Positions 14,429 to 42,309 of a DNA stretch of 58,767 nucleotides are shown here, in pieces. Under the pieces are notes generated by a model. That model did no database searches and was not told where the DNA came from. It saw only the letters and a program-made list of their open reading frames with translations. Source of the stretch: Candidatus Roizmanbacteria bacterium RIFOXYC1_FULL_41_16 (GTDB lineage Bacteria; Patescibacteriota; Microgenomatia; UBA1406); contig MGBO01000021.1 of NCBI GenBank assembly GCA_001788295.1, forward strand, positions 212,865-271,631. The letters run 5' to 3'. Numbering within the stretch: the first letter of the stretch is position 1; each line of letters starts with the position of its first letter. The position numbers and the translations under genes are program-made.

Positions 14429-14886
14429 ATTTTGATTTTGGGAAATACTGTTTGTTTAAGTAATGTCAATTCCGCCAAAGTAAAAGGCTGCAATACGTAA
14501 TGCTCGCCGCTGACACGCTTTTCGGGATCGCGATTGTCTACCCCAATCCTGATTCGCCAAAACTCTTTGCTACCCAAAGACTGCTCGACACTTTCCACGC
14601 CGTTATGGAGTTTTGGACCTTTGCCCAATTGAATTTTGTACTCACCCAAACGCAAATCCAAATCGTCGTGGATAACGATCAGGTCAGCTGGTTTTAATTT
14701 ATAAAACTGTAGCTCTTTGACAACGGCCAAACCGGAACGGTTCATAAAAGTGTCTGGCTTAAGCGTTTTGATTTGTTTATCAATCAGGTGATTTTCAACC
14801 AAATAATCAATAAAAAGAAAGCCGACATTGTGACGAGTTAAAGCATATTTGACTCCGGGATTGCCCAATCCCACCACTAGCTTCAT
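14425..14886 (-). CDS. pth: peptidyl-tRNA hydrolase
   Basis: N-terminal MKLVVGLGNPGVKYALTRHNVGF, plus HDDLDL and GHNG-like motifs. The start was set at the ATG at 14886 rather than the track's 14946. Confidence 0.9.
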   Translation of the reverse strand: MKLVVGLGNPGVKYALTRHNVGFLFIDYLVENHLIDKQIKTLKPDTFMNRSGLAVVKELQFYKLKPADLIVIHDDLDLRLGEYKIQLGKGPKLHNGVESVEQSLGSKEFWRIRIGVDNRDPEKRVSGEHYVLQPFTLAELTLLKQTVFPKIKI

Positions 14887-15703: not shown

Positions 15704-16647
15704 AATTGCTTAGTTAATTTTAACAAATCGCTGAATTTCTCAGTTACCAAAAAACCAGCGGCTTTGAGCGCCTGTCGTTTGGCCGAGGCTTTTTCCAGCT
15801 CGGTTTCGGCTTTGGCTTTGGCGTGTCCAAATTGCGGACTCTGAGCAAATAAATCAGCCACTGTGCCACTGATATGCACCAAAACCGGCTTAGTCAGTTT
15901 GCCTTGCTGTTTCAGTTTAATGAGTTCGTATTCCTCAGTTCCACCCAACTCACCATAATAGATAATGGCAGCAGTTTGCGGGTCGTTTTCTGCCAAAGTA
16001 AAGGCAATGGTAATCTCCGGCTGGGGAAAACGATCACCGCCGGTCGAAAAAGCAAAAGAAAGGTTCTTGCCAGCCTGGCTGACCAGATTAATTAATTCGT
16101 TCGTCATACCGCCAGAGGCAGAAATAATCGCTAACGTCCCCGGCTCAGACAATTTGACATTAATCAACTGCTCTGGCGTAATACCGGCAATCGGACCAAG
16201 TTTTAGCGATCCCGGAACGACCATACCCACACTCGCGGAACCGATTAATAACAGATCGTGTTTTTGAGCCAGATCAGACAAAGCCTGCGCGTGCACCTCA
16301 GGCACGTTTTCGGCAAACAAACTACCACCAACAATATTTTTTACTGACGTGATTAAATCATGACTACTGGTCAGGGTACGCCGGCCGGATAACAGATTAA
16401 GAAACCAAAGATTGCTCTTGGCATCTGGTTGTAATTCTTGCGGTTGAGAAAATAGCGTCAGCAAAATTTCCTGCCGACCCCAAAAATACTTAGCCTTTCC
16501 TCGACCGTTTCCCATAATTCCAATTACGCTTGGTTTTTTTTGGCCGCAAAGATAGTCAAAATCCAAAATTGATTGAATAATGGGCGAATGATTGCCCAAA
16601 ACAATAATTTGGTTGTTAGTATTTCTGATTTGTTTAAGGCTGATCAT
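15700..16647 (-). CDS. aclA: ATP-citrate lyase alpha N-terminal part / succinyl-CoA-synthetase-alpha-like CoA-ligase domain
   Basis: Motifs GSASVGMVVPG and SASGGMTNELINL, plus the phosphohistidine loop SPQFGHAKAKAE (FGHAGA in ACL/SucD). Confidence 0.78.
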   Translation of the reverse strand: MISLKQIRNTNNQIIVLGNHSPIIQSILDFDYLCGQKKPSVIGIMGNGRGKAKYFWGRQEILLTLFSQPQELQPDAKSNLWFLNLLSGRRTLTSSHDLITSVKNIVGGSLFAENVPEVHAQALSDLAQKHDLLLIGSASVGMVVPGSLKLGPIAGITPEQLINVKLSEPGTLAIISASGGMTNELINLVSQAGKNLSFAFSTGGDRFPQPEITIAFTLAENDPQTAAIIYYGELGGTEEYELIKLKQQGKLTKPVLVHISGTVADLFAQSPQFGHAKAKAETELEKASAKRQALKAAGFLVTEKFSDLLKLTKQL

Positions 16648-17792
16648 TGTTCTTTTCTTAATATCTTCACTGCTAATTTGATTACTTCGGTCAAAACGGC
16701 TGAGGAGTCCAAAACTGTACCATACAAGCCACTGTCTTTGAGAAACCTAGCCATCAGTGCCAAGCCTTGTTTTTGGTTTGGGCCACCACGACGCACAAAC
16801 ACCAAAACATCTTGCTTTTTCAAAGCCTGTTTATTCTCCTCAAGCGCTTTAATCACTCCCTGAAACGTTTTGGCAACATCAGTAAAATTAGCCACTCCAC
16901 CGGCAATAACCAATACTTTTTGGTGACTTTTTGACTTTAGCAAATCAGTTAAAATAACTCTCGTGTATAAATATGTATCCTGCATGGTTGGATTGCCCGA
17001 ATATTCTCCATAATTAGCCAGCTCCTGGCCAAAACCAAAGTCTGCCACTTCGTCTGCCAAAACCAGGCTGGCACCACCGCCTGAAAGTAACATCCAAACA
17101 GAACCATTAGGATTGAGCAAACGGTACTTTAATGAAGCTGGACTGGATTTGTCTAGCTTGGCAATTTGCTCCTCGCTGGAACTTAACTTTATTGGCGAAA
17201 TCGGCTCAATTTGTAGATTACTCACGACCGGAATGTTAAGAGCAGCATCGTCAATTTCCACTGCCAAATCAAGAAGATATATCTGCTCATCTTTAACTAC
17301 AAGCGGATTTATTTCCAGAAAACTAAAGTAATATTTATCAAAAATTGTCTTGAGCTTAGCAACAAGTTTTTTCACAATGGGATCGCTGATCGTACTATTG
17401 ACCTGTTGCCAATGATCTTCAATTTCTACCCCTCCGTGAGGACTGTAAAGAACCTTGATACCATCCCTAACCCGTTCTAAACTCAAATATTGCTCTTGAT
17501 TAGCAGTATGGGGAACAAAAGGCTCGATCAAAAATTGCGAAAATTTTTGCTGGCTTTTGGCTTTCACAAAGCTCCGTAACACCCCCGGGGTGTTCCGGAT
17601 GGAGACAAGGCCTTGTTTGGCTCGTTTTTTAATGCCCTGATCCACTTTCGCAACCAATTCTACAGGGCCAAAAAAAGCCTCAATCGTGGCGGCTGTAATT
17701 CGTGAATCGACCTGTAAACCTTGCCATGGTAAATTAAGCTCTTTGGTGAGAATTTTTTTTGCTTGAAATTCACTGATTCTTACTCTGGCCAT
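16644..17792 (-). CDS. aclB: ATP-citrate lyase beta-like subunit (ATP-grasp + citrate-binding)
   Basis: The N-terminal ISEFQAKKIL is typical of the SucC/AclB ATP-grasp, and VIAGGVANFTDVAKTF is also present. The gene overlaps the next gene by 4 nt. Confidence 0.72.
   Translation of the reverse strand: MARVRISEFQAKKILTKELNLPWQGLQVDSRITAATIEAFFGPVELVAKVDQGIKKRAKQGLVSIRNTPGVLRSFVKAKSQQKFSQFLIEPFVPHTANQEQYLSLERVRDGIKVLYSPHGGVEIEDHWQQVNSTISDPIVKKLVAKLKTIFDKYYFSFLEINPLVVKDEQIYLLDLAVEIDDAALNIPVVSNLQIEPISPIKLSSSEEQIAKLDKSSPASLKYRLLNPNGSVWMLLSGGGASLVLADEVADFGFGQELANYGEYSGNPTMQDTYLYTRVILTDLLKSKSHQKVLVIAGGVANFTDVAKTFQGVIKALEENKQALKKQDVLVFVRRGGPNQKQGLALMARFLKDSGLYGTVLDSSAVLTEVIKLAVKILRKEQ
17571..17594. 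repeat. REP-like palindromic element copy inside the aclB-like CDS
   Basis: gctccgtaacacccccggggtgtt. The first 23 nt are identical to 40369..40391 in leuS. It is translated as NTPGVLRS. Confidence 0.75.
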
Positions 17793-17797
17793 AATTG

Positions 17798-17871
17798 TGG
17801 CAGGGGCGGAGGGAATCGAACCCCCAACAAAGGTTTTGGAGACCTCTATTATGCCATTTAACTACGCCCCT
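17798..17871 (-). tRNA. tRNA-Trp (anticodon CCA), 3' CCA encoded
   Basis: The reverse complement folds as a cloverleaf. The acceptor stem is AGGGGCG/CGCCCCT. The anticodon stem GAGGT/ACCTT encloses the loop CTCCAAA. The T-loop is GTTCGATTC, followed by a terminal GCCA. Confidence 0.9.
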
Positions 17872-20821: not shown

Positions 20822-21470
20822 CTAACAGCATAGTGACAACAATTACCACCAAACTATAGAAAAGGCCGTTTCGTAAGTAAAACAGGTTGTGGCTGACAAA
20901 ACTAACTAATTGATTCTTGGCGTTTATTAAGGGAACAAAAGTCACGATTTCCCCGATATATTTAACCAATAAAAACACCAGGCTGGCCAAAAACAATCCC
21001 ACCACACTGCCCTCAAGATCTTTGGCTGAAGAAAACATTGTTAATCCAACTTGCAATAGTAGATAAATGTAGAGCGCCACAAAGACCCATTCCATTCCCG
21101 ATTTGGAATAGGCGGTGGCGACCCAAATAAGAATTAAACCAAAAAAGACCGGCGCCAAGCCAATCAGAGTGCGCCGCAACGGATCGGTTTGCTCGATTTT
21201 CACCCCACCTAACTTGATAGAACGATCTGCTTTTATCTCCGGCATAACCGATATTCCATCGGTTCTCACTTGCATAAACTCGGCCAAGATCAAATGTGCC
21301 GCTTCGTGAATAAAGGTTCCGGGCAATAGAATAAAGGCCAAACCCTTAACTACAGCCGCCTCGTTTTTGAAAATCCGGAATAAATATTGACCCAGAATTT
21401 TAATAAAGGTACGGCTGGCCCAAAAAATCAAGAACAGCAAGCCTAAAATCTGCAGCAAAAGAATGGTCAT
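20772..21470 (-). CDS. integral-membrane putative zinc metallopeptidase (HExxH)
   Basis: FIHEAAHLILAEF lies next to TM helices. The protein has about 6 TM segments and resembles DUF3267-type membrane zincins. Confidence 0.5.
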   Translation of the reverse strand: MTILLLQILGLLFLIFWASRTFIKILGQYLFRIFKNEAAVVKGLAFILLPGTFIHEAAHLILAEFMQVRTDGISVMPEIKADRSIKLGGVKIEQTDPLRRTLIGLAPVFFGLILIWVATAYSKSGMEWVFVALYIYLLLQVGLTMFSSAKDLEGSVVGLFLASLVFLLVKYIGEIVTFVPLINAKNQLVSFVSHNLFYLRNGLFYSLVVIVVTMLLVSVVLVPLLRSNTPRS

Positions 21471-25644: not shown

Positions 25645-25719
25645 GTCCTCATAGCTCAACGGATAGAGCACAGGTTTCCTAAACCTGGGATGAAGGTTCA
25701 ATTCCTTCTGAGGACACCA
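25645..25719 (+). tRNA. tRNA-Arg (anticodon CCT), 3' CCA encoded
   Basis: The acceptor stem is GTCCTCA/TGAGGAC and the D-arm is AGCTCAACGGATAGAGC. The anticodon stem CAGGT/ACCTG encloses the loop TTCCTAA. The T-loop is GGTTCAATTCC, followed by ACCA. Confidence 0.9.
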
Positions 25720-25722
25720 ACC

Positions 25723-25744
25723 AACACCCCGGGGGTGTTACGGG
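25723..25744 (-). repeat. REP-like palindromic element (left, inverted orientation)
   Basis: Begins 4 nt after the 3' end of tRNA-Arg. The core palindrome is AACACCCC(G)GGGGTGTT. Confidence 0.8.
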
Positions 25745-25828
25745 CTGACAGAACAATCGAAAACCCCAAATTTTTTTTGAGGCATAGAAACTCTTGTCTT
25801 TTTGTAGTTTACGCGGCAAATTATTGAT

Positions 25829-26497
25829 ATGCCTTGCCGAAAAATTACTTTTAGCAATCAGGAAGTTTACCATCTTTATAATAAAACCATTGATCATCGC
25901 ACAATTTTTGTTGAGCAGCCTTTAGTTCATTTATTCGTCGATTTAATTAGATATTATCAACCAAAAAAACACTTACTACGTTATTCTCATTACCAAAAGC
26001 TCGAGCCAACAACCCAAGATGAGTATTGGCAGAATCGGCAAGCAATAAATAATCAGCAGATAGAACTCCTGGCGTATGTTTTAATGCCTAACCATTTTCA
26101 TTTATTGGTAAAGCAAAAACTTAAAAATGGAGTGGTTCAATTTATTTCACAAGTTACCAATGCTTTTACCAGAGCCTACAATTGCTATCATCAACGGCTT
26201 GGCCCAATTTTTTTGCCCCGCTTTAAGGCTAAAATCATTTTATCAAGAGAACAACTTATACATACCAGCCGCTATATTCATCTTAATCCGTATTCAAGTG
26301 GAATTGTCAAAAATATAAACATCTTAAAAAATTACCAGAGTAGTTCCCTACCAGAATATTTAATAAAACCTAAAATATGCCAAACGGATTTGATTTTGTC
26401 ACTCTTTAATCTAGATGCCAGTAAATATTGGGAATTCTTATGTAACAATGCGGAGCGTCAAAAAAGTCTGGAAAAAATTAAGCACTTTGGAGCATAA
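25829..26497 (+). CDS. REP-associated tyrosine transposase (IS200/IS605-like Y1 HUH transposase, RAYT)
   Basis: HUH motif LMPNHFHLLV and the catalytic-Tyr motif SRYIHLNPYSSGIV, in a 222-aa protein flanked by REPs. Confidence 0.85.
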   Translation: MPCRKITFSNQEVYHLYNKTIDHRTIFVEQPLVHLFVDLIRYYQPKKHLLRYSHYQKLEPTTQDEYWQNRQAINNQQIELLAYVLMPNHFHLLVKQKLKNGVVQFISQVTNAFTRAYNCYHQRLGPIFLPRFKAKIILSREQLIHTSRYIHLNPYSSGIVKNINILKNYQSSSLPEYLIKPKICQTDLILSLFNLDASKYWEFLCNNAERQKSLEKIKHFGA

Positions 26498-26503
26498 CAT
26501 AAG

Positions 26504-26525
26504 CCCGTAACACCCCCGGGGTGTT
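26504..26525 (+). repeat. REP-like palindromic element (right)
   Basis: cccgtaacacccccggggtgtt. It overlaps the stop codon of the convergent rhodanese-like gene by 2 nt. Confidence 0.8.
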
Positions 26526-27105
26526 ATTTTTCAGGCAGGGTGACAAAGCGCTCCAGTTCCCACTTCTCCCAATCCTTTTCCGGCAACCAGAAATTGGGAA
26601 AATGGCGCCATTCGTTGTAGCCAATCGCGAGGTAATAAGCTTCCCAACCGACTTTTTTCAGATAAAGAGCGGCTTTTTGCGGTGCCACCGAAGCGCTGGA
26701 ATACTGATAAAAAATCAGTTTTTGGCCCTTTAATTTTAAGGCCTTAAAGTTTTTTAACCAGAGATTAAGATCTGTTTGCCAAGGCAGATTATAACTGCTT
26801 CGGATATGCCCTTGTGCAAATTCCTTTTTCAACCTTAAATCAATGATTGCAATTTGACTGGACCGGGTTTGAATTTCGTGCTTTAGATCAAGCGGATCAT
26901 AAACGGCCAGAAGAGGAGCCTGCGTTTGTAAGCGCCAGCGAAGCTGCCAAAGCGACAATTGGCGAAAAACAAAAAAAGTTAAAACAGCTGAGAATAAAAC
27001 CAAAAAAATCGTCTTTAAATATCTGGCTTTATTATTTGACTTTTTTTTAAACCGGTTGAAAATCAAATTCCTAATTTTTTTGATCATTAATCTCAATAAT
27101 ACCAA
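26524..27105 (-). CDS. membrane-anchored rhodanese-like domain protein (active-site Cys absent)
   Basis: One TM helix followed by IAIIDLRLKKEFAQGHIRSSYNLPW. The expected CxxxxxR loop reads IFYQYSSASVAPQKAA, with no cysteine. Confidence 0.55.
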   Translation of the reverse strand: MVLLRLMIKKIRNLIFNRFKKKSNNKARYLKTIFLVLFSAVLTFFVFRQLSLWQLRWRLQTQAPLLAVYDPLDLKHEIQTRSSQIAIIDLRLKKEFAQGHIRSSYNLPWQTDLNLWLKNFKALKLKGQKLIFYQYSSASVAPQKAALYLKKVGWEAYYLAIGYNEWRHFPNFWLPEKDWEKWELERFVTLPEK

Positions 27106-27117
27106 AAAGACTAATTT

Positions 27118-29247
27118 TTATTCATACCGCAATGCGTTCAAGGCGCTGGTTTTTTTGGCTCGTTGAGCCGGATACAAACCAGTAACCAATCCCACCATAA
27201 ACGAACAGGCCAGAATAAAAATAACCAAAAATATCGGCACGTAGCTCACATTAAGATAACCCACTCCGCTGGCTACAGCAAAGGCTGACAAACCCAAAGA
27301 CGTCAACTCGCCCATAAAATAACCCAAAGCCAAGCCGCCGATACCGCCGGCAAAACCCATAATCATGGCCTCAGACAAAAACAGTTCTTGAATTTCCGCA
27401 CTCACCATGCCCATGGTTTTCATACCACCAATTTCCCGGGTACGCTCCAACAAAGAGACAGTGAGCGTATTAAACATACCCAAAGCCGCCACTCCCAAAG
27501 CAATTGTGCCTAATAAACCTAATAACAACCGGATGTTCACAAACAGACCTTCGATTTGGGCAACAGTATCGGCCGTACTTGAGGTGGCGACTCCCAGTAC
27601 TTCAATGTCGCGTCGGACTTGTTTAAGACTACTCTTGTCATTGGTAATCACTTTTAATTGCGAATAATTTTGCAAACCCAAGCGTTCCAGATCCGAAAGC
27701 GGTAAGTAAAAATACTCGGTATTATCGTCATTAATCAAACCAATAATCTCGTATTTAATCTCTTGAGTGATAAGCTTGCCCTCGGCTTCCTTAAGCAGAC
27801 TCCGCACTAAAATAAAAGAAACCTTGAAGCTTTTACCCACGGCTTTGTTTAAAGGAATATCTAAATAGTTAGCCATGGCAGTGGAAATAACGGCTTTACC
27901 CGACGGCAGACCTCTAAACTTAAGGAAATCTTGTTTAGCAGTTTCTTTCAGCGACGCCGACACTGTGGAGCCCAAAGACACGAGCTCCAAGCCGCCGGAC
28001 CCGCTGGCCTCCAAAACCGTGACCTCGAACTCTGAAGTCGCCGAAGGCGTGGCTTCTTCAGTCACAGTCTCGATTTGACCGCTTTGGGTCGCCACACCCA
28101 AAACATTGGCAAACTGCAATTTGTCCTGGATAATGATGGACCGCTCCTGCAAACAAACTTCCTGCCAAAGCTGATGCCCCTGATCATCCAACCGCGGCTG
28201 AACTTGATCTTTGGGTAACTTGTCGTAAAGCGGGACTTTGCTTTTGAGCCACTTCCCTAAATATAAATTATTATAGGAATCATAAGCGATCCGACCGGCC
28301 GGTGAATATGGAGCATACTCACCACCCCAATACTCAGTGCCAATAAAACCGCCCTCAATTCGCTTGGTGTAGCCCAAGATCTTGGCATCCAAATCGCATT
28401 GCGCTCGAGCCACAATTAGTTGATTAGGTTCGATATTAAACAAAGCCGTGGCCGAATTGATCAGCTCTCCGTATCTGGCCCTGATCAGCCTAGTGGTTGC
28501 GGCGCCTTTGACTGAGCCAATCTCCATGGTCAGCTCTGTCCCTTTATCCGAAAAGTATGAACCGCGCATAAATTGACTGGCCAATACCTGCATATACTCT
28601 TCAGTGACGGCATAAGCCAAAATGTCGGTCTTGGCATTGTTGTAATCCACCTTACCTACTACCGAAACAACCGGCAGCACTCTGTCCACGTTTTCGATGC
28701 CGCTGATTTTGGCCATTAGTTTCTGGTTGATCTTGACATCGCCGGTTTCACCCGGAACAACATCAGCCATTTTCAGCTCGTCCAGTCGTGCCACTTTGCT
28801 AATAACCAAACGTTCGACTCCATATCCCAACGATAACAAATAAACAATAATGCCCACGCCCACTGACATACCGAAAATCGTAATCAAAGAACGTGACTTT
28901 TTGATTTTCAAATTATTAAAAGCCAGATTAATCAAATAATAGCGTTTGACTTTGAAGCTGCGCACCGCCTCGATTTTGTTGATAATCTGCTGGCCCAAAC
29001 TATCGGCATGAGTCAGCAAACCCTTTGGCACTACTTTTTTCAAAACCGGTGAAACAATTGGCAAGTGAGCCAGAAATTGAACTGTCAGACGGCTAACAAA
29101 AATCAAAAGCAAAACAAAAAAACTGGCAAAAGCCAATATATTTTGCGGCAGATGAACCAAAGTGTAAAAGGCCGCTTTTAATATTCGCTGACGGGCTTGC
29201 GAATCAGTGACTGTGCTAATCAAGTTTTTCAAAAAATTATTTGTCAT
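27118..29247 (-). CDS. ABC transporter permease, FtsX/MacB type with very large extracytoplasmic domain
   Basis: 709 aa. After the N-terminal TM helices comes a hydrophilic segment of about 430 aa. The C-terminus holds a three-TM FtsX domain (ALGMFNTLTVSLLERTREIGGMKTMG...LYPAQRAKKTSALNALRYE). Confidence 0.8.
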   Translation of the reverse strand: MTNNFLKNLISTVTDSQARQRILKAAFYTLVHLPQNILAFASFFVLLLIFVSRLTVQFLAHLPIVSPVLKKVVPKGLLTHADSLGQQIINKIEAVRSFKVKRYYLINLAFNNLKIKKSRSLITIFGMSVGVGIIVYLLSLGYGVERLVISKVARLDELKMADVVPGETGDVKINQKLMAKISGIENVDRVLPVVSVVGKVDYNNAKTDILAYAVTEEYMQVLASQFMRGSYFSDKGTELTMEIGSVKGAATTRLIRARYGELINSATALFNIEPNQLIVARAQCDLDAKILGYTKRIEGGFIGTEYWGGEYAPYSPAGRIAYDSYNNLYLGKWLKSKVPLYDKLPKDQVQPRLDDQGHQLWQEVCLQERSIIIQDKLQFANVLGVATQSGQIETVTEEATPSATSEFEVTVLEASGSGGLELVSLGSTVSASLKETAKQDFLKFRGLPSGKAVISTAMANYLDIPLNKAVGKSFKVSFILVRSLLKEAEGKLITQEIKYEIIGLINDDNTEYFYLPLSDLERLGLQNYSQLKVITNDKSSLKQVRRDIEVLGVATSSTADTVAQIEGLFVNIRLLLGLLGTIALGVAALGMFNTLTVSLLERTREIGGMKTMGMVSAEIQELFLSEAMIMGFAGGIGGLALGYFMGELTSLGLSAFAVASGVGYLNVSYVPIFLVIFILACSFMVGLVTGLYPAQRAKKTSALNALRYE

Positions 29248-29250
29248 TGT

Positions 29251-30036
29251 TTATTTTAATTTAGATAAAAAGTCCTTGTCCCGAACATTGGCCTGCTCTT
29301 TTTTGTCCAGACCGCGCTTACCGCTAATCTTTAGTTGTTGCCCGGCCACGGCTTTTTGCTCCACCACTTCCCCATCAAGCATATGAATAAGTTTGTCGCC
29401 GTATTTAAGGTACTCCAGATCATGAGTAACCATAATAATGGTCTTGCCATTTGTCGCTAACTGACGAAACAAATCAATCAATTCCTGGCCGGAAACTGTG
29501 TCCAGATTACCGGTGGGCTCGTCGGCGACGATCAACAACGGATCAAGCGCCAAGGCTCGCGCCAAACTAATCTTTTGCTGCTGCCCGCTGGAAAGCTCCA
29601 TTGGCATATAGTTGGTTTTTTCCTGCATTTGAACAGTAGCCAGTACTTTGCTGATTTTTTCCTTTATTTCGGCCTCGGCCACGTCTTGCAAATACAAGGG
29701 AAAAGCGACATTGCCAAAAACGTCGAGCGAATGAATCCAAAGTGGCTGCTGATAAATCATCCCTACCCGCTCCCGGCGATAAAGAGCGCGATCATCCTCA
29801 TTTCCCTGGTAAAAATCCTTGCCTTCAATCAGAACTTTGCCTTGAGTAGGCGCTTCTAATCCCAGCAAACAGTGTAATAAAGTACTTTTGCCGCAACCTG
29901 AAGGCCCAAAAATAATCACAAATTCACCCTTGTTAATTGTAAAGTCGATTTTTTTTAGAACTTGGACCACGCCCTCCCGAACCGGAAAGCTTTTTTCCAA
30001 GTTTTGGATCGTGATTAAGGCCTGTTGACTACTCAT
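29251..30036 (-). CDS. ABC transporter ATP-binding protein (MacB/LolD/FtsE-like)
   Basis: Walker A GPSGCGKSTLL, signature LSSGQQQKISLARAL, Walker B LIVADEPTGNLD and an H-loop VTHD. The start overlaps the stop of the giant gene (ATGA). Confidence 0.9.
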   Translation of the reverse strand: MSSQQALITIQNLEKSFPVREGVVQVLKKIDFTINKGEFVIIFGPSGCGKSTLLHCLLGLEAPTQGKVLIEGKDFYQGNEDDRALYRRERVGMIYQQPLWIHSLDVFGNVAFPLYLQDVAEAEIKEKISKVLATVQMQEKTNYMPMELSSGQQQKISLARALALDPLLIVADEPTGNLDTVSGQELIDLFRQLATNGKTIIMVTHDLEYLKYGDKLIHMLDGEVVEQKAVAGQQLKISGKRGLDKKEQANVRDKDFLSKLK

Positions 30037-33000
30037 TTTACTTTGACTCCTTTTAAGAAACCAAAACTTTTAGATAGATTGTCGACGACTAACTCCAGCG
30101 CGCCTTTAGTTGACTTAGGCGTAATCACGACCGTGTCTTCGCTGCGAGTGGCGTTTTTGGCCTTATCTTTGCTGATCGCCCGTAAATGATAAATGGTCGA
30201 GGGCCGCAAACCAGTAATCGTGACAACATGGTTTGAAGTCAGAGCTTTGTCTTCTTGGGTTGTTTGAGAATAAGTGCCTGAGGTTCCTTGAGCATATTCC
30301 ACTTGTGTGGTTGATGGTTCGTCAGTATCCCAGGTAATCACTAGTTTGGCACGCGCCTCGTCGCCTACTCCAACCACTGTAGTTTCCAGATTAAAATTTT
30401 CAATTAAAGGCGGCCGGAAATCAGTGGCGGTTTTGACTTTCTGATCCGGATAACCAGCCTCGTTGCCAACCAGATCCTTACCGCTTACCAGCAAAGTATA
30501 GTCGGTCTCGTCTTGCAGATCCTGAATAATAACTTCGTGAGTTTTCTTCAAGGTCAGATTGATGTAGTCTTTGGCGCTTTCGGGATAAAGAGACGGATAA
30601 TAAGTGATAATCGAAGACACATCGGTATTGGTTGTCCATAACAAACGCAAAGTGGCTTTGGGCATACCCACAACCTGTTGCACTTTGAGAGCAAGGATTT
30701 TTGGCACTGGCAGCGTTTCAAAAGTATAGTTATCAGAATAGTAGACATTGGCCTCGTCATCTTCAGCCTTAATTCTAAAGTTGTAAGCACTGCCCTCAGT
30801 CAGATCACTTAAAATAACAGTGTGAGTGGATTCATTTTTGGCAATGGAAATGCTTTGGCTACCGCCGTAATTAAGATCCAAACCATATTCAACCGTGGCT
30901 TTAATGGCATTAGCAATCGTAAAAGTGACATTGGCACCATAAATACTGACGTTAGACGTCGTCACTTGTGAAACCGTGGGCGCCGGATTGGTGGTAAAAC
31001 TGATTTCATCAGACGAACCACTGTTGCCGTCCTCGTCCGTCCAAAGAGCTTTGAAATAATAGGTGGCACCCGGATCCAAACCGGTTAACTCAACCGAATG
31101 GCTGGTTACTTGGGTGGAACTGCCGGTTTCTTCACCATAAGTACCGGAGCTTTTGCCGTATTGAACAAATGAATTGCTGGTGCGATTGGTACTCCAAACA
31201 ATAATGGCTGATTTGGTTTTGATTGTCGCTGAAGGGCTGGCAGTTAGGGCCGGGGCCACCCGCCAACGACCATCAGGGTAAAGGCTAACCGTGTCTGAAG
31301 AAATACCACAACCTTTACCGCCAGTGTAATTACAGGCATTGACACAATAATATTTGGTTTCTTGAGTTAAACCAGTATCCACATAAGAAGTTTGGCTGGT
31401 TGAGGCAATGTAGGTAAAGTCGGTATCTGAGGCAGCTTCACTATTGCATTCGGCATCCTCTACACTGGAACGGTAGATCCGGTATTCGGCAATGCCAGAA
31501 CCGGACGATTCGGGCTGATCCCAGGACAAAGCCAGACGCCAGGCGCTGGTTTCTTTAATAGAAACATCGGAAATGTCTAAATTCCGCGGCACGCCCGGTG
31601 AAGACGTTGACGACGTAAAAGTGATTGAGGAATAATTATTGTAGTCAAGATTGCCAGCCTCATCCTCAGCAACGACATAAAGCGTATTTTGGCCCGGATC
31701 TTGAGCATAAGCGCCTTTGCTTAAATAAGTGACAGCCAAACCAAGGGCGTTTTCGGCCGTATCGGCTGAGGGCAGACGATTAATCCAGTAATGATAACGC
31801 AAACTGGCTTGCTGACCGTAATAGATTGACGGCGGATCCCAAGCAAAGGCAAATTCGTTCACAGTATTACTACTGCCACTTACCGGATACGTAATCCGTA
31901 AATTAGTCGGCGCGCCGGCCGCTGTTCCGGAATAATAATAAGAGGCAGTCACCCAACTTGAAGCCCGATTGCCAGCGTAGTCTTCGGCCTGCAAATAAAG
32001 GGTGTTAGTACCAGTTGTGTATTTCACCACACCGCTAGCAGTCGCCTCAACCGTAGACATCTCTGTGCCGGCCGGCCCGGTTTTGTACCAATAGCGCCTG
32101 ATTAAAGAAGCGCTATCAGATGCTCCAGACCAACTAAAGGTATAATCATTAACGTTCGTGTATCCTGATGGAGTAACGACAATTGTGGTCGGGTTTTCCG
32201 GAACCACGTTATCGTATTTATAGATAAACGGTTGCCAATTGGTAGGAGCAAAATTGTCTGAGTCATCAATAGCCTGAATACGCAGATAATATGTTTCCCC
32301 GGATGCTAAATTACTAGCAGTGTACTCAGGATCAATAACCAAAGTGCCGCTTTCTGAAGCATTGGCCTCACTATCAGTGCCTAAATAAACATAATAACCG
32401 GCAATGCCTGAGCCGCCCTCGCCGTCTGATGCTCCATAAGCCGCCTCGGCTGCGGCCCAATTAAAGTATGGCGCACTGCTATTAGCCCAAGTTTCGGTGG
32501 TGAGTGTCGCGGCCTGAGTGGCAGTGGTATAAGCATTAAAGCCAGTGTCTGACGGATTGCTTGGTAAGGTCACATCCTGATAATAATTCACGGTATAGTC
32601 ACTAATGACACCAGAATAAATTCCGTCGCCAGAGGCCAGCTCAAATTTGAGCTGTAAATAACGATTGACCGCAGAATTAATCTTGTAAGTATAGTTATTA
32701 GCCACCTGTTTCTCCTCGGTCGAGGTGACCCAGGATGACCAAGTCTCGTTATCCGCCGAAGACCGGCTGCTCACGGTCAGAGTAGTATTAGTTCCTGACG
32801 TGTAAGTTAAAGCTAAATCGGCAAAACGGTAAACCGATGTCAGATCATGAACCAGTGAAATATAACTGCCGTTTTCTTCAAAAGAACTGTTGTTAGTTTG
32901 CATTACCAAAGTGTATAAACCATTGGTAAAAGTGTTGTTGCCGCCTGAACCAGGAATGACATAGATCTTGTCTACACCGTTACTGGCAGCAGCGCCACCG

Positions 33001-36000
33001 GCAGAAATGTAAGGAGCATAAACATCACTGATCACTTCCCAAGTATTATTGGTCAAAGAATAGCGCAAACAGTCTTTTTGATTCCAACCTCGGCAGGCAT
33101 ACAAATAATCGCCACCGCCATCGACCAAAAAGCCGTCGTTATATATACCATAGCCAGTGGGCAAATCAGCGACAACGGCATCATTCCAGGTATTGGCCGC
33201 AGGGTCATAACGGTAAAAGGTAAGGCCAGTACCACCACGAATGGCATAAATATAACCATTGCGATAAACCAGATCGGCGCCGTAAGACATGGTACTTGGC
33301 GCGTTAGTCAAAAGCTCCCATCGACTGGCCGCTTCACCTTGCAAATTATAACGATAAAAAGTATTGGCATTACCCCTAAGCCAGTAAATATATTGAGCGC
33401 CATCAAAAACCATGGCCGAGCCCACATAAGGATCATAGGGCGGCGGATCAGTGGTGATCTCACTCCAAATATCAGTGGCAATGTCGTATTTGTAAAACTT
33501 ACGATCGTAGTAGTTTGATGTGGCGTATATTTGATTGTTAACACTGTCGTAAACTAGCTCAGTCCCGTAATAAAAACTTGAGGGGGCGTCAGCCATTTGC
33601 ACCACTTCGGCCGTGGTTTCGTTATAACGGAAAAAAGTATTGTCAAAATTGCCCCGGGTAAAATAAAAGTAATTGCCATTGCCTTTGATAATATCGGCGC
33701 CGTAATTAAAAGTGCGCGAGTCAGAACCTCGATACCAGCCGCCAAACAAACCCACCTGTGGTGTTTGCCAAGAGGCCTTGGCAATATTGTATTTGTACAA
33801 AGTTTGAGCTCCACCACCTCTCATTACATAAAGCTCACCATTGACATTTTTCATGGTTGATCCATAAGAAATTGGACCAGGTACCTCGGTTAACTCCGAC
33901 CAAGTTTGATTGTCAATGCTGTATTTATAAAAAAAGGTTTTGTTGTTGCCGGGAAAATAATAGACCGCATTGGTCGTGCTGTCGTATTCAATTCGGGCGC
34001 CAGACGATTCGATAAAAGGCGCATTGGGCAATACTAACCATTGATCGCTGGTAATACTATAAGCACTAAAACCAGTGCGACTATTACCCTGAATGGCATA
34101 AATGGTATCAGCCCCGTCGTAAGCCAAATCAGCGCCAGCCTGAACCAAATTGTTGATCTGCACCGAGGTGGCGCCGAAATCAATATTGGCTTTTTGTTCC
34201 CAAAGATCAGTCAGGGTATCATAACGATAAAAAGCGTCGTCGCCATTACCTCGTAAAGCATAAATATAACGATCTCCGGTTGAAATCAGGGTTGCCCCAT
34301 AAGAAGTGGATTGAGGAAAATCGGTCGCCGCCGCATCAGACCAAGTGTCGTTGGCAATATCATACCGCCAGAAGCCACTAGTATTTAGACCTTTTAAGGC
34401 ATAAAGATAGCCGGCTGGGCCTTCGGCAAGATCCGAACCATAATAGGCGGCCGAAGGTGTAACCGCTTTGGTTGTCCAAACGTCAGTGGTCAGATCATAT
34501 TCATAAAAAGTGGTTGTATTGTAGCCTCGAAGTAAATACAGTTTGTTTGAAGAAGCAATATAAGCAAACTCCGAGCCCAAATAGACTCCGGCCGGCGAAT
34601 ACATTAAACGTTCGTTTTCCCAAAAACTGCTTTTAGAACTTAATTTGATTTGATCACTGGAGGTTGAAACGTTATCCAAAGTCCCTTGACTAAAATCCTC
34701 AGTTAAGGTTTGTGTCAGTGTTTGCGGCGGCGACACGCCTTGGTAAACATAAGTGAACAAGGTTTCGGCCGCGCTCACATTACCCAAACTGTCTTTGGTT
34801 TGAATAATCAGATAATATGTGCCGTTGGCCATTGGCGTGGTCACCATATAATTAGTACTGATTTGATAGCTCCCCTCTGTTTCGGGATCGGCCGTATTTG
34901 ACGAACCAAAATAAACATAATAGCCGCTCACTTCTGTCTCAGCGTCAAGAGCGCCGGACCAAGTAAAATACGGATGAGCATGACCATAGCTATTACCGCT
35001 AATCAGGGTCGAGCCACCAACCTGACTGGAAAGAGCGGTAAGGCTGGAGGGATTGCTGGGTGGATTGGCGTCGCCGGTATAATCAACAGTAACAGAATAT
35101 AAAACTGGTGTTTGAGAATTGTCAGAGCTGCTGGTAAAAGCCGCTTTAATCTGCAAATATTGATTGGGAGTTGAACTAATGGCTCCACCAGAAACTGTTT
35201 CCCAATCGGTCCAGGTAATTTGATCACTACTGGAGCGAGTCTGAAAGACCAAATCAGCGTCTCCCGGAGTCGCCATCGAAGTCGTGAGTGAAGTCCAGGA
35301 ATCAACATGAGTCAAATCCAAAACAGCGCTGGTCCAGGTACCGCTAGTTTGATAATTATTGGCGCTCACGCTAAAGGTTTGCATTCGTAAAACATCCATG
35401 CCGTAGATTGAATAAAAATTACCGCTGCCATCATTGACCAAAGAACCGCCATTCCAGGGACCAATTTCAGTTGGGCCATAAGTAGCCATGGGCAAGAGAT
35501 AGCGCCAAGAGTTATTGGCAATCGAGTACTCCCACAAATCGCCCTTATAATAACCGGCTTGAGCATAAATTTTGCCGTTGTAATAGCTGATATCAGTGCC
35601 CCAATAAGGCGCAAACGGTAAGTTGTTTAGCTTGGTCCAAGTATTTCCAGTAATTGAATATTTCAAAATTTCCGAAGTACCGTAACCGGACGTGTAATAA
35701 AGATCCGTTCCATCACTGATTAACCTGGACCCAAAACCCGCCTCAGCATTATCCGGCAAATCGGCAACAGCCACGTCGCTCCAAGAGTTACCACTGATGC
35801 TGTAGCGCCAAAAAGAAGTGGTCATCGAACCTCTGGTGCCATAAAGAAAATCGCCTGATCCCGGATAAACCAAAGCGCCTCCATAATAGGCATTGCTTGG
35901 CGCGTCGGCTAATTGAGCCCAGGAGTTTCCGGCAATATTATAACTGTAAAAAGCGGCGGTACTGTTGCCCAGATAAAAATAAATCGTACCGTTAGCCAAC

Positions 36001-37184
36001 TCAGCCTTGGTATCATTGTTGAAATTGACTGTTGAACTGGTTAATGTTTCCCAGGTTTTTGAGCTTGTACTATAGCGATAAAAACCGTTCGCATTGTGTC
36101 CTCGATGATAGTAAACATAACCGTTGTCGTAAACTAAATCAGCGCCGCTTCCTGGGGCAATTGGCAAGTCAATCTCACCTAGAAATTCATTATTGGCAAT
36201 GTCGTATTTCCAGAAGTCATATAAACCACTGCCCCGGAAAACATATAAATAACCGTCCGCCGCATTATAAACATTGCCCACGTAAGCCGTTGCCTGCGGT
36301 AGTGTCACCAAAGATTCCCAGGTGTTCGTACTGATTTGGTACCGATAGAAGCCGGTGGTTGAAGCATAATCCCGCATAAAATAAATATAATCGCCATTAA
36401 TATCAATGTTGTGGTTGCCATACATCGGGTAAAAATCAGCCGGCACGCTGGTTAATGACGACCAGGTGTTACTGGCAATATTATATTTATAAAAATCCTG
36501 GTAATAGCCGCGAGGGACATAAAGCGAACCGTCTTGATAAACCATGTCTGAGCCTTGTTGTAAAGCGCCTGGCGGGTATGAAAGCGTGGTGAGCCAAGTA
36601 TTGGTGGAGGGATCATATCGCCAGAAATCCTGAGTCCAACCACCTTTGGTGGCGTAGATATAAGTGCCGTCGCTGACAATACTGGCGCCGTCTAATATTA
36701 AGTCCGGCAAATCAGCCAGGTCTTCCCAGCTATTATTAATAATCGAATAACGGCTGAATTCATTTTGATAACCGCCATAAATGGCATAAATGTAATTACC
36801 CATTATAGTTAAACTGGTGCCGTTGTACGCACCATGAGGGGCTGATGCTAGTTCTTGCCATCGGTCTTCGTTTGGCAAATAGCGGGCAAAATACCGGTCA
36901 AAACCAGCCAAAATATAAACATAGTTGCCGTCGCTGACAACTCCGGTTTGATTGGTCAAAGGAATTTTGGGCGTTTTCCACGAGCGGGCGCCCCAGCTAC
37001 CGGCTGACTTAAGTTTGATTTCCCCTTCTTTACTGGCTGCTTCGGTATTGGTAAAAGTGCCGGTTTCAAAATCGGTTTTGGCAGTTAAAGTACTGGTAGT
37101 TGCCTGCACAGAATAAGGCATTATCACTGTTATGATCATAGCCATCAGTAAGATTGCAACTCTATTAATTTGCCGACTGTTCAT
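30033..37184 (-). CDS. giant secreted protein (2383 aa): multiple Kelch-type beta-propeller arrays interleaved with and followed by FN3-like domains
   Basis: Signal-peptide-like N-terminus (VAILLMAMIITVIMPYSVQA). Dozens of repeats of about 45-50 aa follow, for example GNYIYAIYGGYQNEFSRYSIINNSWEDL, GTYIYATKGGWTQDFWRYDPSTNTWLT and DGSLYVPRGYYQDFYKYNIASNTWSSL. The C-terminal third has at least 5 FN3 / purple-acid-phosphatase-N-like units (AIIVWSTNRTSNSFVQYGKSSGTY...HSVELTGLDPGATYYFKA). Confidence 0.85.
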   Translation of the reverse strand: MNSRQINRVAILLMAMIITVIMPYSVQATTSTLTAKTDFETGTFTNTEAASKEGEIKLKSAGSWGARSWKTPKIPLTNQTGVVSDGNYVYILAGFDRYFARYLPNEDRWQELASAPHGAYNGTSLTIMGNYIYAIYGGYQNEFSRYSIINNSWEDLADLPDLILDGASIVSDGTYIYATKGGWTQDFWRYDPSTNTWLTTLSYPPGALQQGSDMVYQDGSLYVPRGYYQDFYKYNIASNTWSSLTSVPADFYPMYGNHNIDINGDYIYFMRDYASTTGFYRYQISTNTWESLVTLPQATAYVGNVYNAADGYLYVFRGSGLYDFWKYDIANNEFLGEIDLPIAPGSGADLVYDNGYVYYHRGHNANGFYRYSTSSKTWETLTSSTVNFNNDTKAELANGTIYFYLGNSTAAFYSYNIAGNSWAQLADAPSNAYYGGALVYPGSGDFLYGTRGSMTTSFWRYSISGNSWSDVAVADLPDNAEAGFGSRLISDGTDLYYTSGYGTSEILKYSITGNTWTKLNNLPFAPYWGTDISYYNGKIYAQAGYYKGDLWEYSIANNSWRYLLPMATYGPTEIGPWNGGSLVNDGSGNFYSIYGMDVLRMQTFSVSANNYQTSGTWTSAVLDLTHVDSWTSLTTSMATPGDADLVFQTRSSSDQITWTDWETVSGGAISSTPNQYLQIKAAFTSSSDNSQTPVLYSVTVDYTGDANPPSNPSSLTALSSQVGGSTLISGNSYGHAHPYFTWSGALDAETEVSGYYVYFGSSNTADPETEGSYQISTNYMVTTPMANGTYYLIIQTKDSLGNVSAAETLFTYVYQGVSPPQTLTQTLTEDFSQGTLDNVSTSSDQIKLSSKSSFWENERLMYSPAGVYLGSEFAYIASSNKLYLLRGYNTTTFYEYDLTTDVWTTKAVTPSAAYYGSDLAEGPAGYLYALKGLNTSGFWRYDIANDTWSDAAATDFPQSTSYGATLISTGDRYIYALRGNGDDAFYRYDTLTDLWEQKANIDFGATSVQINNLVQAGADLAYDGADTIYAIQGNSRTGFSAYSITSDQWLVLPNAPFIESSGARIEYDSTTNAVYYFPGNNKTFFYKYSIDNQTWSELTEVPGPISYGSTMKNVNGELYVMRGGGAQTLYKYNIAKASWQTPQVGLFGGWYRGSDSRTFNYGADIIKGNGNYFYFTRGNFDNTFFRYNETTAEVVQMADAPSSFYYGTELVYDSVNNQIYATSNYYDRKFYKYDIATDIWSEITTDPPPYDPYVGSAMVFDGAQYIYWLRGNANTFYRYNLQGEAASRWELLTNAPSTMSYGADLVYRNGYIYAIRGGTGLTFYRYDPAANTWNDAVVADLPTGYGIYNDGFLVDGGGDYLYACRGWNQKDCLRYSLTNNTWEVISDVYAPYISAGGAAASNGVDKIYVIPGSGGNNTFTNGLYTLVMQTNNSSFEENGSYISLVHDLTSVYRFADLALTYTSGTNTTLTVSSRSSADNETWSSWVTSTEEKQVANNYTYKINSAVNRYLQLKFELASGDGIYSGVISDYTVNYYQDVTLPSNPSDTGFNAYTTATQAATLTTETWANSSAPYFNWAAAEAAYGASDGEGGSGIAGYYVYLGTDSEANASESGTLVIDPEYTASNLASGETYYLRIQAIDDSDNFAPTNWQPFIYKYDNVVPENPTTIVVTPSGYTNVNDYTFSWSGASDSASLIRRYWYKTGPAGTEMSTVEATASGVVKYTTGTNTLYLQAEDYAGNRASSWVTASYYYSGTAAGAPTNLRITYPVSGSSNTVNEFAFAWDPPSIYYGQQASLRYHYWINRLPSADTAENALGLAVTYLSKGAYAQDPGQNTLYVVAEDEAGNLDYNNYSSITFTSSTSSPGVPRNLDISDVSIKETSAWRLALSWDQPESSGSGIAEYRIYRSSVEDAECNSEAASDTDFTYIASTSQTSYVDTGLTQETKYYCVNACNYTGGKGCGISSDTVSLYPDGRWRVAPALTASPSATIKTKSAIIVWSTNRTSNSFVQYGKSSGTYGEETGSSTQVTSHSVELTGLDPGATYYFKALWTDEDGNSGSSDEISFTTNPAPTVSQVTTSNVSIYGANVTFTIANAIKATVEYGLDLNYGGSQSISIAKNESTHTVILSDLTEGSAYNFRIKAEDDEANVYYSDNYTFETLPVPKILALKVQQVVGMPKATLRLLWTTNTDVSSIITYYPSLYPESAKDYINLTLKKTHEVIIQDLQDETDYTLLVSGKDLVGNEAGYPDQKVKTATDFRPPLIENFNLETTVVGVGDEARAKLVITWDTDEPSTTQVEYAQGTSGTYSQTTQEDKALTSNHVVTITGLRPSTIYHLRAISKDKAKNATRSEDTVVITPKSTKGALELVVDNLSKSFGFLKGVKVK

Positions 37185-37480
37185 GCTAATAATTCACTGG
37201 TAATTTTTGATAATTCATTCTGACTGATCACCTGTTGGTTTAATTTCCATCTTAAGCCGCGTCCGGCCTTGGGCCGGCCCCAAGCAATCACCAGTCTCTC
37301 CCCCAATATTTTTTGCCGCGAAAGCGAGGAAAATAACCCGCCCAAACTCTTGCCTTTGAGACCGATTTTGGCACCAGAATCGGTTGAGGAAATAATGCCT
37401 TTGGGGCTTTTGGCCAACAACAACAAAGCCCGCAACTGATTGGGGCTCAACCGATGTAACTTATCGATCACAGAGCTCAT
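37181..37480 (-). CDS. hypothetical small basic protein, first gene of the giant-protein operon
   Basis: 99-aa ORF whose stop overlaps the start of the giant gene by 4 nt. It sits directly behind a canonical promoter. It may be helix-turn-helix-like (LSPNQLRALLLLAKSPKG), which is unverified. Confidence 0.5.
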   Translation of the reverse strand: MSSVIDKLHRLSPNQLRALLLLAKSPKGIISSTDSGAKIGLKGKSLGGLFSSLSRQKILGERLVIAWGRPKAGRGLRWKLNQQVISQNELSKITSELLA

Positions 37481-38239: not shown

Positions 38240-39499
38240 CTAAATTTTGATCTTTTTGTGCGGACTAATTAAGGCCAAATTCAGTTTATCCGGTTTTAAG
38301 ATCTGCTTTGCCAGCTCAATCACCTCTTCCAAACTCACCTGATCAATTTTATTAAGAACCGTTTCCAAATCTTTTTCCGACTGATCAAATAATTCCCGTT
38401 TGCCAAAAAAAGAGGCCAGATCAAATGAATCCTCGAGCGCCAAAATCGTGCGGCCCTTAATCATTTCTTTGGCTTTGTTGAGTTCGTCTTTTTTTAGTTT
38501 GGCCTGAATTATTTTTTGCTGCTCCTTAATGATCAAACTGATCGCCTGCTCAATCTTCACTTGGCTGACATTGACGCCGGCGCGGGTATACATGTAGCCG
38601 GTTTCCTCGTAAAGCTCCATCCCTGATTGGATGTAATAACACAGCCCCCGGCGCTCCCGCAATTCATAGAAAAGGCGGCTGCTCATGCCGCCCCCAAGAA
38701 TGGCCGTCAAAACATTAAGACCATATTTGTGACGACTGGAGCGGGAAAAGGCCGGATAACCAATCACAAAATGTGCTTGCTCGGTGGCCTTGGAGATCAG
38801 GTTTGTTTGCGGCCGGGCCTGTTGCTGATTAATGGGGACAAATTCTTGAGTGGGTTTTGGCTGCCAAGATCCAAACTTAGCCTCAATCTGCTCTTTAATA
38901 GTTGATTCCTGACCATTCAAACCACCGGCGACCACCAAGACCGCGTTATTGGGGCGGTAAAGACAATCCATATAATTGGTAAAAGTTTGGCGATTAAAAC
39001 TAGACACGATTTCTTTAGTTCCGGTAGTGGGATAGCCCAGAGGGCTATGAGGAAAAATAATATCTTCAAAAACATCCCAAACCTTGTACTGTGGCAAATC
39101 CTCATACATATTAATCTCTTCAATAATAACTCCTTTTTCACGCTCAACTTCTTCAGATTTTAAAAGTGAATGCAGCAGCATCTCTGACAAAACATCAATC
39201 ACCGTGGCAAAATGCTTTAAGGGCGCCTTAATCCAATAGCCGGTGTGGTCTTTGCTGGTAAAGGCGTTTTGCTGGCTGCCGATTCCGTCTAATAGCGTCG
39301 AAATGGACAAGGCCGACGGATATTTTTGGCTGCCCTTAAAAGCCATATGCTCAAAAAAATGAGCAATGCCGTTGTTTTTCTTATTTTCGTAGCGGGAGCC
39401 CGCGCTCACCAACAGCAAAGTGGCCACTGACGGAAAAGCCTGAGTATCCAATAATAGTACCCGTAGGCCGTTTTTGAGCTTATATTCTGTTTTGATCAT
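38240..39499 (-). CDS. M16-family (pitrilysin-like) zinc peptidase
   Basis: Inverted zincin motif HFFEHMAFKG (HxxEH) with a downstream Glu region (EEVEREKGVIIEEI). Confidence 0.85.
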   Translation of the reverse strand: MIKTEYKLKNGLRVLLLDTQAFPSVATLLLVSAGSRYENKKNNGIAHFFEHMAFKGSQKYPSALSISTLLDGIGSQQNAFTSKDHTGYWIKAPLKHFATVIDVLSEMLLHSLLKSEEVEREKGVIIEEINMYEDLPQYKVWDVFEDIIFPHSPLGYPTTGTKEIVSSFNRQTFTNYMDCLYRPNNAVLVVAGGLNGQESTIKEQIEAKFGSWQPKPTQEFVPINQQQARPQTNLISKATEQAHFVIGYPAFSRSSRHKYGLNVLTAILGGGMSSRLFYELRERRGLCYYIQSGMELYEETGYMYTRAGVNVSQVKIEQAISLIIKEQQKIIQAKLKKDELNKAKEMIKGRTILALEDSFDLASFFGKRELFDQSEKDLETVLNKIDQVSLEEVIELAKQILKPDKLNLALISPHKKIKI

Positions 39500-42057: not shown

Positions 42058-42309
42058 TTAGTGACTAAAATTGACGTACAGGTTGCGTTCGGCCGAGGCA
42101 ACATTGAGAGTGTGACCATTTAGTTTCTCCATTGCCTCTCTGGCCTCATTTAGATTGCTCATTTCCACAAAACCATAACCGCGAGAACGACGGCGCTGAT
42201 CTTTGACAATCTCGACTTTGGCCACTAAACCGACCTTGGCAAAAACCTGTTTGAGATCAGCTTCAGTCGCGGGATAAGGAATGTTGCCAACATAAAGTTT
42301 GTTATTCAT
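42058..42309 (-). CDS. RRM-type RNA-binding protein
   Basis: RNP2 KLYVGNI and RNP1 RGYGFVEM, in an 83-aa protein. Confidence 0.85.
   Translation of the reverse strand: MNNKLYVGNIPYPATEADLKQVFAKVGLVAKVEIVKDQRRRSRGYGFVEMSNLNEAREAMEKLNGHTLNVASAERNLYVNFSH

Follow-up and report, generated by a model that had tools for sequence, protein, structure and literature searches.

A stretch of 58.8 kb of DNA from a very small groundwater bacterium, Candidatus Roizmanbacteria (Candidate Phyla Radiation, CPR; hereafter the window, to which all window counts refer), from a GC-poor and gene-dense genome, carries a gene for a REP-associated tyrosine transposase (RAYT) just behind a tRNA-Arg(CCT) gene and between two inverted repetitive extragenic palindrome (REP) hairpins. 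We conclude with good confidence that this cassette is a REPtron-like unit, in which a vertically inherited RAYT of the domesticated type is framed by its inverted cognate hairpins. Direct support comes from the make-up of the cassette, the protein's family and fold, the co-variation of RAYT and hairpin among relatives, the conserved synteny together with an empty site, and the polymorphism in presence, absence and orientation of hairpin copies within genes. By analogy with the E. coli protein TnpA_REP, the RAYT protein would also cleave these hairpins and move them.

The cassette starts 3 nt (ACC) after the encoded CCA end of the tRNA-Arg(CCT) gene (25645-25719, plus strand; predicted by ARAGORN and matched by the Rfam tRNA model with 70.9 bits), and Rfam found nothing besides this tRNA. 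The left REP (25723-25746, plus strand) consists of a 17-nt palindrome, AACACCCC-G-GGGGTGTT, and an inward tail, ACGGGCT; the right REP (26502-26525, minus strand), which lies 4 nt past the RAYT stop codon, is its exact reverse complement. The initial annotation had described 22-nt perfectly inverted repeats around the open reading frame (ORF), and indeed the 22-mer AACACCCCGGGGGTGTTACGGG at 25723-25744 on the plus strand recurs as its exact reverse complement at 26504-26525. The exact identity extends to 24 nt (left 24-mer, AACACCCCGGGGGTGTTACGGGCT), and the arms continue imperfectly over 54 nt at 74% (25723-25776 and 26472-26525). The positions reported initially for the tRNA, the ORF (25829-26497) and the flanking inverted repeats were all reproduced, as were the identity and adjacency of the tRNA, whereas the spacing of 4 nt between tRNA and cassette is in fact 3 nt. 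To describe the cassette as inserted after tRNA-Arg is reasonable, because a close relative with shared synteny has an empty site.

As single-stranded DNA (ssDNA), the REP core is predicted to fold into a hairpin of 7-8 bp with about -6 to -6.6 kcal/mol, which bears out the GC-rich, hairpin-forming core proposed at the outset. The foot of the REP reads (C/T)CCG(T/A)A in the window (GTAA at best), CCCAAA or TCCGAA in the related locus L001, and CCCATA in the related locus L048. The 5' GTAG tetranucleotide at the hairpin foot is absent, and a one-sided conserved tag, YCCRW (CCGTA here), is present. Thus, of the conserved 5' CCGTA extension first suggested, the one-sided tag stands but the fixed sequence does not, since relatives share only YCCRW.

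A leader of about 82 nt (25747-25828, plus strand), probably the promoter and 5' untranslated region, separates the left REP from the RAYT start codon. Conservation of the leader extends across three orthologous cassettes (TAATTTTTTTG, TAGAAAC-N2-TTGT). In an alignment of the window, L001 and L003 that runs from the left REP through the leader into the first RAYT codons, the mean column identity is 79%. A promoter consensus scan listed no site in the leader. On the RAYT mRNA the right REP reads as a hairpin followed by AUUUUU and may therefore serve as a terminator; it was not among the sites listed by a terminator scan, despite the hairpin and the ATTTTT.

The ORF between the REPs (plus strand) encodes a protein of 222 residues, and profiles, motifs and fold support its assignment to the RAYT/TnpA_REP class of Y1 HUH transposases, as the initial annotation had it, and not to IS200. 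The protein has MPNHFHLLV at residues 86-94 and RYIHLNPYSSG at residues 148-158; from these motifs we assigned the HUH as H89-F-H91 and the nucleophile as Y149 in Y-I-H-L-N-P. Residues H89, H91, Q96, Y149, N153 and S173 are invariant in 30 aligned homologues, and P154 is conserved in at least 90% of them. Y-x3-NP is the signature of class 2 (TnpA_REP), whereas class 1 has Y-x4-Q (Quentin et al. 2018, PMC6006769), and N153 corresponds to the active-site residue N119 of the E. coli protein (PMC3479197). The Pfam Y1_Tnp search that had been advised gave 29.2 bits (E = 1e-6), over the gathering score of 23. Among the NCBIfam models REP_Tyr_transpos was the best family (55.1 bits, E = 7e-15, which stays under the equivalog cut-off of 80 bits), with transpos_IS200 at only 14.2 bits against a cut-off of 55; across the family, 30 of 30 homologues matched REP_Tyr_transpos (best 4e-17) and 0 of 30 matched IS200. 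When compared with the PDB, the family profile matched 4ER8, the E. coli TnpA_REP, through the tyrosine helix, and ISDra2 TnpA only around the HUH. An AlphaFold (AF2) model built from 30 homologues (pLDDT 92.7) pointed the same way, its predicted fold having 4ER8 as Foldseek rank 1 (E = 5e-8, TMt 0.70) and IS200/IS605 transposases (ISDra2/IS608 TnpA) as the next matches at about 1e-4. Both alignment and model contain a conserved helical C-terminal extension comprising the last ~60 residues (about 160-221).

The family is large. A word-indexed homologue search returned 827 clusters at 90% identity (E <= 1e-5), nearly all of 220-230 residues, whose named members are Roizmanbacteria or unclassified 'bacterium' metagenome-assembled genomes (MAGs); in clusters of 50% identity, an exhaustive search counted 129 with E <= 1e-30, a number that rises to 1,969 with E <= 1e-10. 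We compared nine distinct loci (the window, L001/L002, L003, L004-6, L007/8, L042, L043, L044 and L045), and in nine out of nine the RAYT gene is framed by inverted short hairpins whose sequence is lineage-specific. The flanking hairpin is ATCACCCCGGGGGTGAT in L001/L002, TCCACCTCTGGAGTGGA in L004-6 and L007/8, AACCCTCGTGGTTGG in L042, TATCAACCTCCGAGGTTGATA in L043 and CCTCACCCCCGAGGTGAGG in L044, the last two with extra copies nearby, and ACACCTCGGGAGTGT in the distant homologue L045, where doublets resembling REP doublets forming hairpins (REPINs) stand on both sides. One MAG has two paralogues with 44.5% identity and different hairpins; divergent paralogues within one genome are the class-2 pattern (PMC6006769). 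More distant homologues are found at unrelated loci.

Single or low copy number and vertical inheritance are indicated by the one copy in the window, by the constancy of the locus in metagenome contigs and by orthologues beside the same tRNA. In several groundwater and soil metagenomes the identical protein keeps this locus (24 contigs read), and the six of six places shown, which stand for 25 contigs, share their neighbours. The closest orthologues (68% and 66% identity) adjoin the 3' end of tRNA-Arg(CCT) in the syntenic neighbourhoods of L001/L002 and L003. Between the window and the L001 orthologue dS is saturated and dN/dS is ~0.10, and therefore selection has long maintained the RAYT gene. 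The gene order at the cassette is PEGA, sortase, tRNA-Arg, RAYT, rhodanese and FtsX. An adjacent tnpB, or ends typical of IS200/IS605, had been named as what would make this an ordinary insertion sequence (IS); the neighbours are tRNA-Arg, sortase and rhodanese, with neither a tnpB nor an IS200/IS605-type end at the locus, and tblastn found no second RAYT copy in the window, so that these grounds for calling it an ordinary IS fall away.

Two further states of the locus are seen among relatives. In L001 and L003 the two REPs enclose the gene and its leader in the reverse of the orientation seen in the window; recombination across the inverted arms would give this arrangement, which suggests that the gene between inverted REPs can flip. 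In L047 the synteny is kept (LeuRS, M16 peptidase, nucleoside-diphosphate kinase (NDK), tRNA-Arg, sortase, PEGA, MreB) and the gap between NDK and tRNA-Arg is a 114-nt spacer with no RAYT; no REP core occurs in the 22.5 kb of L047, and its leuS site is empty too. Judged by its sequence, L047 is an empty site, through loss or non-acquisition. We also observed in L047, 2 nt past the 3' end of tRNA-Arg (14549-14560), an 11-of-12 palindrome, TTGCCCGGGCAc, that has a CCCGGG centre like the REP and is single-copy in that locus; it may be an ancestral tRNA terminator hairpin that was used as a landing site. A block of ~11 kb with genes for a giant protein, ABC and FtsX proteins (27118-37480) lies between NDK and tRNA-Arg in the window and L048, as against L001 and L047. 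Since close relatives differ in this block, the neighbourhood of the cassette is a point of rearrangement.

Further copies of the hairpin are dispersed in the window. Allowing 3 mismatches or fewer, we found seven matches of the 22-mer at six distinct places, compared with an expectation of 0.00 from 100 shuffles. Four dispersed copies (0-3 mismatches), all on the minus strand, agree with those reported initially, but their placement is not extragenic: each lies within a long ORF, in sense orientation, and together they use three different frames. The copy AACACCCCGGGGGTGTTTCGGA at 3219-3240 is in a TatD-like ORF (2621-3445), where it encodes QHPGGVSEL at residue 69. The copy at 17573-17599, which is tail-like on both sides, encodes IRNTPGVLRS at residue 65 of an ATP-grasp ORF (16644-17792) that is ATP-citrate-lyase/succinyl-CoA-synthetase beta-like. 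The copy at 40371-40392 is in leuS (39496-42024) and encodes HTPGVLRSK at residue 545, in the variable linker before PVDWYLGG. The fourth, at 43251-43308 (REP at 43283-43304), is a long form that occupies the first codons of a membrane-protein ORF (42302-43321) and encodes TTPRGCYGL; it matches 26472-26529 with 83% over 58 nt, covering the last RAYT codons (KHFGA and the stop) and the right REP. Rather than a bare REP, this copy resembles a solo end of the cassette or the result of one-ended copying, and it is the only convincing long form among the window copies. A 45-nt tail similarity common to six copies was rejected as partly an alignment artefact, the tail in tatD and leuS being native in REP-free relatives.

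The L046/L047 orthologues lack 45 nt that the copy contributes at the start of ORF 42302-43321, and in leuS the net gain relative to close relatives with an empty linker is 21 nt, or seven codons. Both measured inserts are multiples of three, with approximate boundaries at the ~75% identity of the compared genes. The REP can be read through in every frame of its sense strand, and one antisense frame contains TAA. The copy density is ~1 per 10 kb, and most copies are without a T-run. As side observations, the two-sided tail at 17573-17599 (TCCGG...ACGGA) recalls the 'double-foot' REPs of TnpA_Y1 subclass 2.4, and this copy sits ~200 nt downstream of tRNA-Trp (17798-17871, minus strand). The window also contains a second small repeat, TTCCATTCCCGATTTGGAA(TAGGCGG), at 2598-2616, 21089-21115 and 46982-47008, with 19 nt inverted at 100% and 27 nt direct at 93%; two of its copies are at convergent gene ends, and it may be a family of bidirectional terminator type unrelated to the RAYT hairpin.

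Elsewhere, a 20-mer of the repeat occurs solitarily in about ten other low-GC metagenome contigs, mostly within genes (SecA C-terminus, CysRS-like, CMP-kinase-like and DprA-like); a metagenome scan for the repeat gave 23 loci, with a RAYT gene at none. A scan of a collection of genome contigs that does not hold the source genome, using ACACCCCGGGGGTGTTNCGG, gave four matches in unrelated genomes of 51-74% GC, approximately the number expected by chance. The exact 20-mer ACACCCCGGGGGTGTTACGG was also seen in L009, L019 and L029, which are an Elusimicrobia MAG and metagenome contigs with a GC content of ~0.5; in the Elusimicrobia contig it lies within a longer imperfect palindrome, AACCTGTTACACCCCGGGGGTGTTACGGGTT, as a chance match or a related hairpin.

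The leuS site provides the clearest view of gain and loss. We compared the LeuRS linker between CWYFLxF and PVDWY, and found that it is empty in three close relatives (P0123/L046, P0125/L047 and P0126), where it has 13 residues (AKxxGxxGNSxYL). In the window it is filled and has 20 residues. In L001 it is filled and longer, with that species' own variant, ATCACCCCGGGGGTGAT, as a partial and a full copy, and in P0122, P0124/L048, P0128 and P0131 it is filled with an ITPGVI-type sequence. The L048 repeat is in the opposite orientation, with the tail ATATGGGCTGTTGG on the antisense strand, and therefore at least two independent events have occurred at one hotspot. The sequences of the empty, filled and reverse-filled states argue for recurrent insertion. 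Partial tandem copies were noticed at two places in L001: one precedes the repeat upstream of RAYT (3316-3353, AAACATCACCCC and then AAACATCACCCCGGGGGTGAT), and another is in leuS at about nt 500-570 (NITPGA..NITPGVIR). They suggest slippage or abortive copying at the hairpin.

Ten of the 11 scored intragenic sites are sense-oriented, with the L001 leuS site omitted as possibly the same event as that of the window (P about 0.03 against a 3:2 expectation), so that the sense-strand bias is suggestive only. The plus strand of the window has a uniformly negative GC skew, and thus the minus strand is probably the lagging-strand template; it carries five of the six copies in AACACCCCGGGGG orientation. 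Placement on the lagging-strand template fits an ssDNA mechanism, with orientation confounded with gene direction.

Several observations weigh against reading the cassette as a REPtron-like unit. The tag at the REP foot is not GTAG and varies among relatives, and the REP_Tyr_transpos score of 55 is below the equivalog cut-off of 80 bits. The check for pairs of the kind found in bacterial interspersed mosaic elements (BIMEs), which the initial annotation had proposed, turned up none within the window: there are no REPIN or BIME doublets, and every copy is a singleton, 778 nt or more from the next. The known REP copies of this genome are the six in the window. Logan contigs from four runs had no joints, inversion or excision at the locus, although contigs cannot show rare variants. 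The assignment to the RAYT family comes from sequence and predicted structure. Finally, that two species both have a filled leuS site could stem from common descent and gene conversion instead of transposition.

This last point belongs to a broader alternative, in which the intragenic copies are old and immobile and gene conversion from those beside RAYT keeps them identical within a genome (concerted evolution). It gains from the filling of the same leuS site in the window and L001, each with its own species' variant, and from the partial tandem duplications in L001, which are typical of recombination or slippage, but it has to contend with equally close relatives whose 13-residue linker is clean and empty and with the opposite orientation of the L048 repeat at this site. 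Arms of 17-24 nt are, moreover, very short substrates for homologous recombination. We consider this alternative quite improbable. It is also unlikely, if somewhat less so, that the cassette represents an ordinary, autonomous IS200-type insertion sequence, with REP, gene and REP jumping whole and the dispersed hairpins being solo ends or footprints. The ends of IS200/IS605 elements are not inverted repeats, whereas those of the cassette are, and the protein has Y-x3-NP and not Y-x4-Q, scores only 14 bits with the IS200 model and has no tnpB nearby. The empty site in a close relative would suit such an element, as would the solo-end-like match of 43251-43308 to 58 nt of the right end including the last RAYT codons (83%), but the 58.8 kb contain a single copy, the contigs read with the identical protein agree in their locus, and the position at tRNA-Arg is common to three species despite saturated dS. 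Distant homologues at unrelated loci likewise speak for mobility of the whole; the presence of two paralogues in one MAG does so less clearly, as these share just 44.5% identity and each has a hairpin of its own, in keeping with the class-2 pattern (PMC6006769).

A third alternative is that the hairpin is a signal selected by the host, for instance for DNA uptake, transcription termination or mRNA stability, and that its proximity to RAYT is incidental. In competent bacteria uptake sequences also occur within genes in tolerated frames, as the copies here do. Competence proteins are encoded in CPR genomes, and ComEC-type genes are present in L047 and L048. The ATTTTT after the right REP and the sense orientation of 10 of 11 intragenic copies point in the same direction. 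Yet nine of nine RAYT homologues have their own, different inverted hairpin pair, copies number only ~1 per 10 kb and mostly lack a T-run, and a cassette-free relative has no copy in 22.5 kb. It appears very improbable that the hairpin is such a signal. Taken together, the evidence favours a REPtron-like unit.

If the unit works as TnpA_REP does in E. coli, its protein would bind ssDNA that has folded into the REP hairpin, along with the unpaired YCCRW tag at the hairpin foot. H89, H91 and the helix Y149-x3-N153 would bind metal and cleave through a 5'-phosphotyrosine, and rejoining of the strands would then spread or remove short REP units; cleavage and rejoining have been shown for the E. 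coli TnpA_REP (PMC3479197, PMC8266576). In a gene-dense genome, the copies that survive would be in-frame units of 3n nt in tolerant protein loops or termini. We further propose, but only tentatively and as something rather to be doubted, that in CPR the partnership has shifted from 'extragenic' to 'coding-compatible', with a Y1 nuclease that seamlessly inserts and removes stop-free hairpins of 3n nt in hotspots of essential genes such as the LeuRS linker. Action on the non-template or the lagging-template strand, which this proposal would probably involve, would explain the 10 of 11 sense bias. If the proposal were true, a domesticated transposase would repeatedly remodel protein loops.

The E. 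coli REPtron, TnpA_REP (RayT/YafM) with flanking REPs, was reportedly described by Nunvar in 2010 and Ton-Hoang in 2012, and RAYTs are said to have been divided into groups 1-5 by Bertels and co-workers in 2017. Descriptions of the E. coli REPtron were given by Messing 2012 (PMC3479197) and Corneloup 2021 (PMC8266576). Reports of REP/RAYT systems, and of REPs within genes, cover at least 8 phyla, and intragenic GTAG/CGTC REPs, TIRYT and TIRtrons have been described (Di Nocera et al. 2013, PMC3733652). Thus, of the range extension suggested by the initial annotation, the placement in CPR stands, while its frame of systems 'mainly in Proteobacteria' gives way to these 8 phyla or more. The text of Quentin et al. 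2018 (PMC6006769) mentions neither Microgenomates nor Parcubacteria, and in the literature searched no paper links REPIN/RAYT with the Candidate Phyla Radiation, the search with RAYT and Patescibacteria having been swamped by unrelated word matches. The lineage is new for a known type of system: the REP/RAYT partnership is hereby placed in CPR, where the family is large. The cassette present, flipped or absent, and the intragenic site empty, filled or reverse-filled, form a natural comparison set with which to test whether, and by what means, RAYTs indeed move REPs. For annotation the repeats carry a warning, since short peptide motifs such as NTPGVLR, TPRGCY and HPGGV in CPR proteins can be repeat-encoded.

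Among known systems, the TnpA of IS200/IS605 (IS608, ISDra2) shares the HUH/Y1 fold and the recognition of ssDNA hairpins, the latter being predicted here, and the seamless excision and insertion of IS200/IS605 would fit the in-frame gain and loss observed. None of the class 1 traits was seen, namely Y-x4-Q, an obligate dimer, frequent tnpB, multiple copies and non-inverted ends. With class 2 TnpA_Y1 (PMC6006769) the protein has in common Y---NP, a serine after the core (S172/S173), low copy number and divergent paralogues. The REPs of Di Nocera et al. and the Rickettsia palindromic elements (RPEs) are similar to ours as in-frame palindromes in conserved genes, including those of tRNA synthetases. 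In contrast to the former, most known copies here are intragenic, not a minority, and one site is empty, filled or reversed among relatives; in contrast to RPEs, the units are far shorter. A TIRYT is a Y1 gene with longer terminal inverted repeats; here the repeats are exact over 24 nt and reach 54 nt at 74%, with one dispersed copy matching 58 nt.

The closest comparison is with E. coli. TnpA_REP (4ER8) is alike in the HUH, the single tyrosine on a Y-x3-N helix and the fold, and the E. coli REPtron is alike in that inverted cognate hairpins flank the gene and recur, in its single or low copy number and vertical inheritance, and in the unpaired tag at one foot of the REP. The REP here, a perfect palindrome, resembles the second group of PMC8266576. 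However, the protein has only 17% identity with TnpA_REP; its ~60 extra residues form a helical C-terminal domain in place of the short inhibitory tail of the E. coli protein, and H123 of E. coli is replaced by Ser. Compared with the E. coli REPs, the tag is YCCRW and not GTAG, the hairpin is shorter (a 17-nt palindrome), and the copies are intragenic singletons and not BIMEs. The host phylum differs as well, being CPR/Patescibacteria.

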